Assembly: GCA_963665285.1 (NCBI GenBank) | Contig: OY762266.1 | Span: forward strand, 3,552,001 to 3,616,000 | Source: Candidatus Poribacteria bacterium | GTDB lineage: Bacteria > Poribacteria > WGA-4E > PCPOR2b | Reading direction: 5' to 3' | DNA: 64,000 bases | Shown here: in pieces, positions 45,654 to 45,899 of the stretch | Layout of the letters: every line of letters starts with the position of its first letter | How positions within the stretch are numbered: position 1 is the first letter of the stretch | Translations under genes and position numbers: made by a program | The notes under the pieces: generated by a model | What the model was told of the DNA's origin: nothing | Seen by the model: the letters and a program-made list of their open reading frames with translations, nothing else | Database searches by the model: none

Positions 45654-45899
45654 ATGGGACTCGATTGGAAACCACGTCATCGGGATATGCTTATTGGCGG
45701 ATACTGGTGGTTGGCACGAGTTAGTGACAAGGCACGTGCCAAACTGAACGGTACTATCGGTGAATACATCTACCCGTGACCGCAGGACAAAAAGTTCCTG
45801 GAGGAACATAAGGTAGATGCTGATGAGTTCGTTGAGATGGTGAAAAGTAACCCGTCAGACGATGATATGATTGCCGCGATGCAAAAACTCAATCGGTAG
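45654..45899 (+). CDS. DUF5069-like small protein with in-frame UGA (candidate selenoprotein, Sec at residue 42)
   Basis: SD AAAGGAGGTG; MGLDWKPRHRDMLIGGYWWLARVSDKARAKLNGTIGEYIYP-TGA-PQDKKFLEEHKVDADEFVEMVKSNPSDDDMIAAMQKLNR-TAG; family-like sequence continues past the UGA. Confidence 0.75.
45794..45807 (+). promoter_or_regulatory. Candidate bacterial SECIS hairpin
   Basis: GTTCC-TGGA-GGAAC; G-containing 4-nt loop starting 20 nt after the UGA. Confidence 0.5.

Follow-up and report, generated by a model that had tools for sequence, protein, structure and literature searches.

A short gene in the 64,000-nucleotide stretch of Candidatus Poribacteria DNA that we analyzed (the window) carries an in-frame UGA at the position of a conserved cysteine. 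Judged from sequence and its conservation, this UGA is very likely decoded as selenocysteine (Sec), with a predicted 81-residue four-helix protein of the DUF5069 family (Pfam PF16798) as the product. The gene is thus very likely a Sec-encoding gene of an uncatalogued family: as the first-pass annotation had held, DUF5069 is not known as an established selenoprotein family, and it is absent from the 119 families in Table 1 of the 2026 catalogue (PMC13188914), and DUF5069 was not found in the available text of PMC12013277 and four supplements. Literature searches for DUF5069, PF16798 or a Latescibacterota selenoprotein found none in the sources covered, most subscription journals lying outside the search and a mention there being possible. 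The wider reading, in which UGA recoding is combined with a chemically active Sec-42 in one intact gene, we hold to be highly probable; the bacterial selenoproteome would thereby gain a family whose fold differs from the usual thioredoxin types, and for a domain of unknown function with a solved structure, residue 42 emerges as the probable working residue.

Features of the gene and its surroundings (positions in the window)
Feature	Position	Strand	Remark
UPF0182 membrane-protein gene, upstream	42404..45589	+	usual upstream neighbor in families f1-f3; possibly plain synteny
Shine-Dalgarno (SD) sequence AAAGGAGGTG	45638..45647	+	6 nt upstream of ATG 45654
Short-subfamily DUF5069 gene, predicted selenoprotein	45654..45899	+	81 codons including one UGA; motif YIYP-U-PQD
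In-frame TGA, predicted selenocysteine	45777..45779	+	codon 42, at the conserved Cys of DUF5069
Competing stem CAGGA/TCCTG	45783..45800	+	45783-45787 pairs with 45796-45800
Bacterial SECIS-type hairpin GTTCC-TGGA-GGAAC	45794..45807	+	5-bp stem, 4-nt loop, G at loop position 2
GTAG-flanked perfect 20-bp palindrome	45896..45919	+	overlaps the TAG of the gene; genome-wide REP-like repeat

The reading frame had been described as an SD sequence, an ATG, the TGA and a further 39 sense codons to a TAG (45897-45899), and all of these coordinates were exact on re-reading. A similar purine-rich site lies upstream of those orthologues whose sequences were inspected, and because the SD sequence and the orthologues both point to 45654 we place the start there rather than at GTG 45429, whose 116-aa frame overlaps the UPF0182 gene, ends at the UGA and was rejected as a gene start. 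The read-through product scores 59.8 bits against PF16798 (cut-off 27), and the 41-aa product that ends at the UGA scores 30.7 bits against the same cut-off. The earlier assignment to DUF5069 therefore stands, with the correction that the match covers only positions 4-75 of the 133 in the profile: the protein belongs to a short subfamily (80-95 aa) from which the C-terminal part is missing throughout, and is not a full 133-position domain. No separate gene for the C-terminal part was found among the four DUF5069 matches in the genome, and no NCBIfam family matched the gene product at E values up to 1. A promoter scan of 45500-46100 gave no sigma-70-like site. Contigs from the RNA libraries of three studies (3 of the 16 RNA runs listed) span the gene; because these are contigs of relatives, uninformative on strand and level, and come with no silent-stretch control, we do not take them to prove expression. 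The palindrome over the TAG resembles a REP element; it recurs genome-wide (38 exact copies and 52 with one mismatch), in many cases within a GTAG...CTAC frame, and is outside the recoding signal.

The in-frame TGA is far from a singleton. An orthologue was present in all 61 genomes searched (this one and 60 others, from 4 families and 15 genera), and codon 42 is TGA in every one, even where identity falls to 62%; the same holds for 80 of 80 loci from genome contigs, which overlap the 61 genomes, and the closest named loci are Poribacteria at 91-96% identity. Of 176 genomes in the phylum, 168 contain an orthologue, with an internal TGA in 160 and Cys in 8 (all of family f8); the TGA was confirmed to lie at this codon in the 61 genomes, in the 80 contig loci and in another 6 loci, and the remaining orthologues were scored by internal-stop count. 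The first-pass annotation had placed the UGA on the Cys of a CPxD motif, and it does align with the CPLD of PDB entry 3omd (phmmer E 4.6e-14) and with Cys in 104 of 121 database homologues. The other 17 have Trp at this column, which we infer to be TGA translated under code 4. Within a set of 16 database homologues, two stop at the UGA, ten have Trp there and four have Cys, and one database homologue that stops at the UGA is 100% identical to the first 41 residues of the gene. A gene that is near-universal in Poribacteria is yet cut short or mistranslated in databases.

Seven full-length DUF5069 paralogues in relatives have TGC, Cys-42 is invariant in 100 short Cys forms (a set chosen for having it), and the 149 distant homologues comprise 122 with Cys-42 and 11 with Ser. 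In family f8, Cys is found at codon 42 in 8 of 8 orthologues, mostly in the same place before pheA, and because this family uses Cys although 7 of its 8 genomes have selB, Sec is not essential. Downstream of the UGA the codons are under purifying selection much as they are upstream (pN/pS 0.23 versus 0.18).

The hairpin proposed at 45794-45807 was confirmed, with its loop starting 19 nt after the UGA. According to the available text of PMC13188914, bacterial SECIS elements (bSECIS) have a loop of 3-9 nt, a stem of 4-16 bp, a G in the first two loop positions and a distance of 16-37 nt from the UGA, a geometry into which the loop of 4, stem of 5 and spacing of 19 found here fall; the 4-nt loop, in which G occupies positions 2 and 3, and the 19-nt spacing are also like the consensus reported there. 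Seen in this genome alone the element is at chance level: folding of a 54-nt segment gave z = -0.13, the hairpin did not stand out when the sequence was folded by itself, and 5170 of 110668 genomic TGAs (4.7%) get through a simple bSECIS-like filter. The 54-nt segment folds with -9.2 kcal/mol (the hairpin being part of the minimum free energy structure) and the hairpin alone with -4.2, set against a bSECIS criterion of <= -7.5. Its closing-pair probability is 0.02-0.12, compared with a median of 0.95-0.99 for 92 TGA sequences, and because of competing pairings it is predicted to be formed only 2-12% of the time. An alternative stem, CAGGA/TCCTG, had been suggested at the outset. It can indeed pair, but only 50 of 92 sequences retain its 5' arm, so that the GTTCC/GGAAC hairpin is the conserved element and the competing stem is probably not the recoding signal.

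It is conservation, and not folding in a single genome, that lifts the hairpin above chance. All 93 distinct TGA sequences keep a stem of 5-7 bp, exceptions staying paired through G-U or A-U, and synonymous change is almost absent from the hairpin codons 48-51 (pS 0.028 versus 0.68-0.70 elsewhere in the gene). Among the 61 orthologues, Phe-48 is TTC in 61, Leu-49 CTG in 60, Glu-50 GAG in 61 and Glu-51 GAA in 60, compared with genome-wide usage of 47% for TTC, 21% for CTG and 44% for GAG; the codon for Lys-47 is AAG in 35 of 35 orthologues that have Lys. In a covariation analysis of 46 distinct rows, which are kin and not independent, the five core pairs were unbroken and 3 of 7 pairs had changed on both sides. 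Family f8 provides a natural control, in that all 8 of its Cys orthologues are left with 0-1 bp of stem, versus 5-7 bp in 6 of 6 TGA loci, and in 80 metagenome loci the hairpin is present in 38 of 40 TGA forms versus 2 of 40 Cys forms. The Sec/Cys pairs offer a clean natural test of SECIS gain and loss. Taken together, this conservation makes SelB-directed recoding at the hairpin almost certain; SelB would bind the G-containing hairpin loop and deliver Sec-tRNA in competition with RF2. Two TGA forms (L248 and L249) have FLDG codons and a hairpin with an extra or shifted loop base, which may represent a longer-looped form of SECIS.

The genome has the full set of Sec machinery genes, selA, selB, selC and selD. 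The selA match has an E value of 8e-157, selB scores 366 bits and the single tRNA-Sec(UCA) 76.6 bits; these three lie in one cluster and selD is elsewhere. The selD gene (G000:C1:1669431-1670351, minus strand) has an in-frame TGA of its own (CG-U-AAK) and is a predicted selenoprotein gene, with a hairpin AGTCC-AGTT-GGACT (5-bp stem, loop AGTT) 17 nt after the UGA. In the phylum as a whole, selB was found in 167 of 176 genomes. The first-pass annotation had named four points on which the Sec reading might fail, namely the machinery, a singleton TGA, selection downstream and the alignment to Cys, and all of them favored it. In one Poribacteria genome (L105:3399-4163) a selD-like gene, identified by eye, follows closely on the downstream side of the DUF5069 gene and points towards it.

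There are other ways to read the codon. A SECIS-dependent tRNA-ReC (SelC*) might insert Cys at the UGA, or an altered code might have it translated as Trp or Gly. There is a precedent in tRNA-ReC, which decodes UGA with a SECIS according to the available text of PMC13582414, and the W that gene callers give in 17 of 121 homologues would also fit. At default thresholds, however, the genome has one tRNA-Sec, which ends in G-CCA, one ordinary tRNA-Cys(GCA) and one tRNA-Trp(CCA), with no second SelC-like or UCA tRNA, and a relaxed ARAGORN run added only noise; the single copies and the lack of a second SelC-like tRNA disfavor the tRNA-ReC route. Because RF2 is present and TGA terminates 687 of 2268 long frames, UGA is not reassigned, and TGA also terminates 13 of 61 orthologues of the short DUF5069 gene itself. 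With RF2 and UGA stops kept and no extra tRNA, the genome looks like neither a UGA-reassigned code (4, 25) nor a tRNA-ReC system, and we regard this explanation as very improbable. We give equally little credence to a true stop, leaving a 41-aa peptide or a pseudogene, or to a sequencing error. The weakness of the hairpin in this genome could be held in favor of a stop, as could the partial termination at UGA that is expected in any selenoprotein gene, but the presence of this codon in all 61 genomes, the purifying selection beyond it and the frozen hairpin codons all speak against a stop, and an independent contig, possibly from the source sample, is identical with 0 differences. Read as a selenoprotein gene, it is like others with an intragenic bSECIS, of which E. 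coli fdhF is the prototype, in having a UGA at a conserved Cys, a 5-bp stem, selABCD and many Cys homologues; it is unlike the usual bSECIS-type selenoproteins in its all-helical predicted fold, its lack of a second Cys and its lack of a catalogue entry.

The predicted Sec form extends beyond Poribacteria. Half of the metagenomic TGA loci (20 of 40) are not Poribacteria-type, and some of these have neighboring proteins labeled Latescibacterota or Handelsmanbacteria; one related Cys locus is labeled Gemmatimonadetes. The non-Poribacteria TGA loci share the TTCC-TGGA-GG core at the same distance from the UGA. A tree of 82 sequences, built with the Sec/Cys column masked, shows three state changes (79 columns, many open forks), and it fits three gains of Sec as well as one gain followed by losses.

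An AlphaFold2 model, calculated with U as C and 23 sequences, has a pLDDT of 79 and helices at residues 20-32, 43-51, 56-65 and 69-80. It superposes on 3omd, a protein of unknown function from Leptospirillum rubarum, with a TM score of 0.83, an r.m.s.d. of 1.7 and a Z score of 12.1 over 79 residues, and the fold is shared, with U-42 aligned to the Cys of its CPLD; unlike 3omd and DUF5069 in general, the protein lacks the C-terminal part and has Sec in place of Cys. Among 48,161 chains in a fold search the next best hit had an uninformative Z score of 3.7, absence from that list excluding nothing, and a literature search on 3OMD gave nothing related among the matches listed. The protein does not resemble thioredoxin-fold UxxC/CxxU selenoproteins, having no Cys and, in its four-helix model, no strand of at least 3 residues; the 81-aa sequence contains no second Cys, UxxC or CxxU motif, and the short DUF5069 forms have no conserved His/Cys cluster and only one thiol or selenol.

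Residue 42 lies directly N-terminal to predicted helix 43-51 and is the sole thiol or selenol of the protein. A position just before the start of a helix commonly lowers the pKa of a thiol. Because of this position and its being the only such group, Sec-42 would act as a nucleophile of low pKa or as a redox switch, in either case with the help of a partner, and we consider it probable that it is a reactive residue of this kind dependent on an outside reductant, by which it would be reset; the reductant would probably be a thioredoxin/glutaredoxin system. Of the 149 distant homologues, 134-146 share Arg-22, Asp-25, Lys-26 and Asp-45, and with Tyr-38 these invariant residues may hold an anionic substrate or a partner. 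The fold can evidently exist without thiol chemistry, because two of the three other DUF5069 domains of this genome have no Cys at the site and Ser occurs in the distant homologues (11 of 149). One of the proteins concerned is a two-domain DUF5069 protein with SGxD replacing CPxD (L158:1057-1911), and a single-domain DUF5069 gene lies downstream of TauD-family and rhodanese-like genes (L160:1492-1944); relatives also have three-domain forms.

A candidate partner came from gene neighborhoods. In 37 of 60 distant loci (L207-L266, outside Poribacteria), the DUF5069 gene is immediately preceded on its own strand by an uncharacterized gene of ~350 codons, as scored with a profile built partly from the counted loci (15 of the 37 positives included) and with 5 of the 23 negatives having < 150 bp of sequence on the upstream side. 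Latescibacterota- and Bacillota-labeled contigs are among these loci, and hence at least two phyla. The model of the product (pLDDT 93.5) has an APH fold and matches 3csv at E 6.9e-8 with a TM score of 0.55, and Lys-59, Glu-78, Asp-216, Asn-221 and Phe-233 are conserved, the first four at kinase-like positions. In fold and conserved residues it is like the APH/choline-kinase-fold phosphotransferases (PF01636 relatives; PDB 3csv, 8ahd), whereas its identity to solved members is only 8-20% and, of 6 copies scanned, 5 went unrecognized by Pfam; the fold does not imply a role in resistance. In Poribacteria the kinase gene is adjacent in 0 of 20 loci, and it is absent beside Chloroflexota-labeled loci. 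This genome has one orthologue, far from the DUF5069 gene (L267:5700-6800; G000:C1 about 81,700-82,800). Among 28 genomes spanning the families of the phylum, the kinase is single-copy in 20 of 22 with the short DUF5069 gene (completeness is 80% and 61% for the two exceptions) and missing from all 6 without it; because they span three families, the six genomes that lack both genes may represent few independent events. A complex prediction for a Cys orthologue (L224) and its adjoining kinase gave scores of 0.01 and 0.00, with the mark set at 0.32, which is evidence neither way.

From this pattern we suggest, with somewhat less than even confidence, that the short DUF5069 protein works in one module with the APH-fold kinase, perhaps regulating the kinase in a redox-sensitive manner, serving as its substrate or carrying the product that it makes; the pairing at least gives the DUF5069 protein a concrete candidate partner. 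A bolder version, which we offer as speculation and think unlikely, is that the two genes form an undescribed two-part module in which the single Sec/Cys switches the kinase or takes its phosphate, Cys having turned to Sec more than once in Poribacteria and Latescibacterota as Phe-Leu-Glu-Glu codons became the same SECIS hairpin each time. If true, such a module would wire selenium chemistry directly to phosphorylation.

The kinase might also be incidental and the Sec protein a stand-alone one-Sec scavenger of peroxide or persulfide recycled by thioredoxin or glutaredoxin. A gene for a glutaredoxin-thioredoxin reductase (Grx-TrxR) fusion lies directly upstream in 7 of 7 f4 genomes, a thioredoxin-like/NHL gene lies near one Chloroflexota-labeled Cys locus examined, and according to the available text of PMC13188914 the majority of selenoproteins in the catalogue are presumed to be redox proteins. 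The reductase neighbor is, however, confined to that one family, the protein has neither a resolving Cys nor a CxxU/UxxC motif, and adjacency to the kinase recurs across at least two phyla, so we think this rather doubtful. A more improbable account makes the Sec a metal or metalloid ligand, or the ligand site of a sensor domain, and not a redox catalyst. It would suit the Ser variants and the fusions to cupin (3), DUF2249 (1) and methyltransferase (1) domains among 33 long DUF5069 homologues scanned, such as small sensor modules often show; some of these fusions may be frameshift artifacts, though, and the single thiol or selenol, with no conserved His/Cys cluster, speaks against a metal site. 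We retain a reactive Sec-42 as the preferred reading, with the redox or metal chemistry suggested by the first-pass annotation as a hypothesis; most of the probability left over by the kinase module goes to the scavenger and metal-ligand accounts.

Other neighbors of the gene vary with the family. In f6, f7 and f9 a Gfo/Idh/MocA gene takes the upstream position, and pheA is usually downstream in Poribacteria; together with UPF0182, this neighborhood may be plain synteny. The Grx-TrxR fusion of f4 (L162:6545-7771 and other f4 loci) is 408 aa long with two CxxC motifs, and its orthologue in this genome matches the reductase part only. Downstream in the window (46054-56078) are tandem secreted-looking WD40 and other repeat proteins that share a C-terminal FPNPFNPETW domain. 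In Latescibacterota-type loci the kinase and DUF5069 genes are preceded by a gene for a 126-aa protein without a Pfam family (conserved WCGADG motif), an orthologue of which is found here at L268:5934-6302 (G000:C1 about 2,270,936-2,271,316, minus strand).
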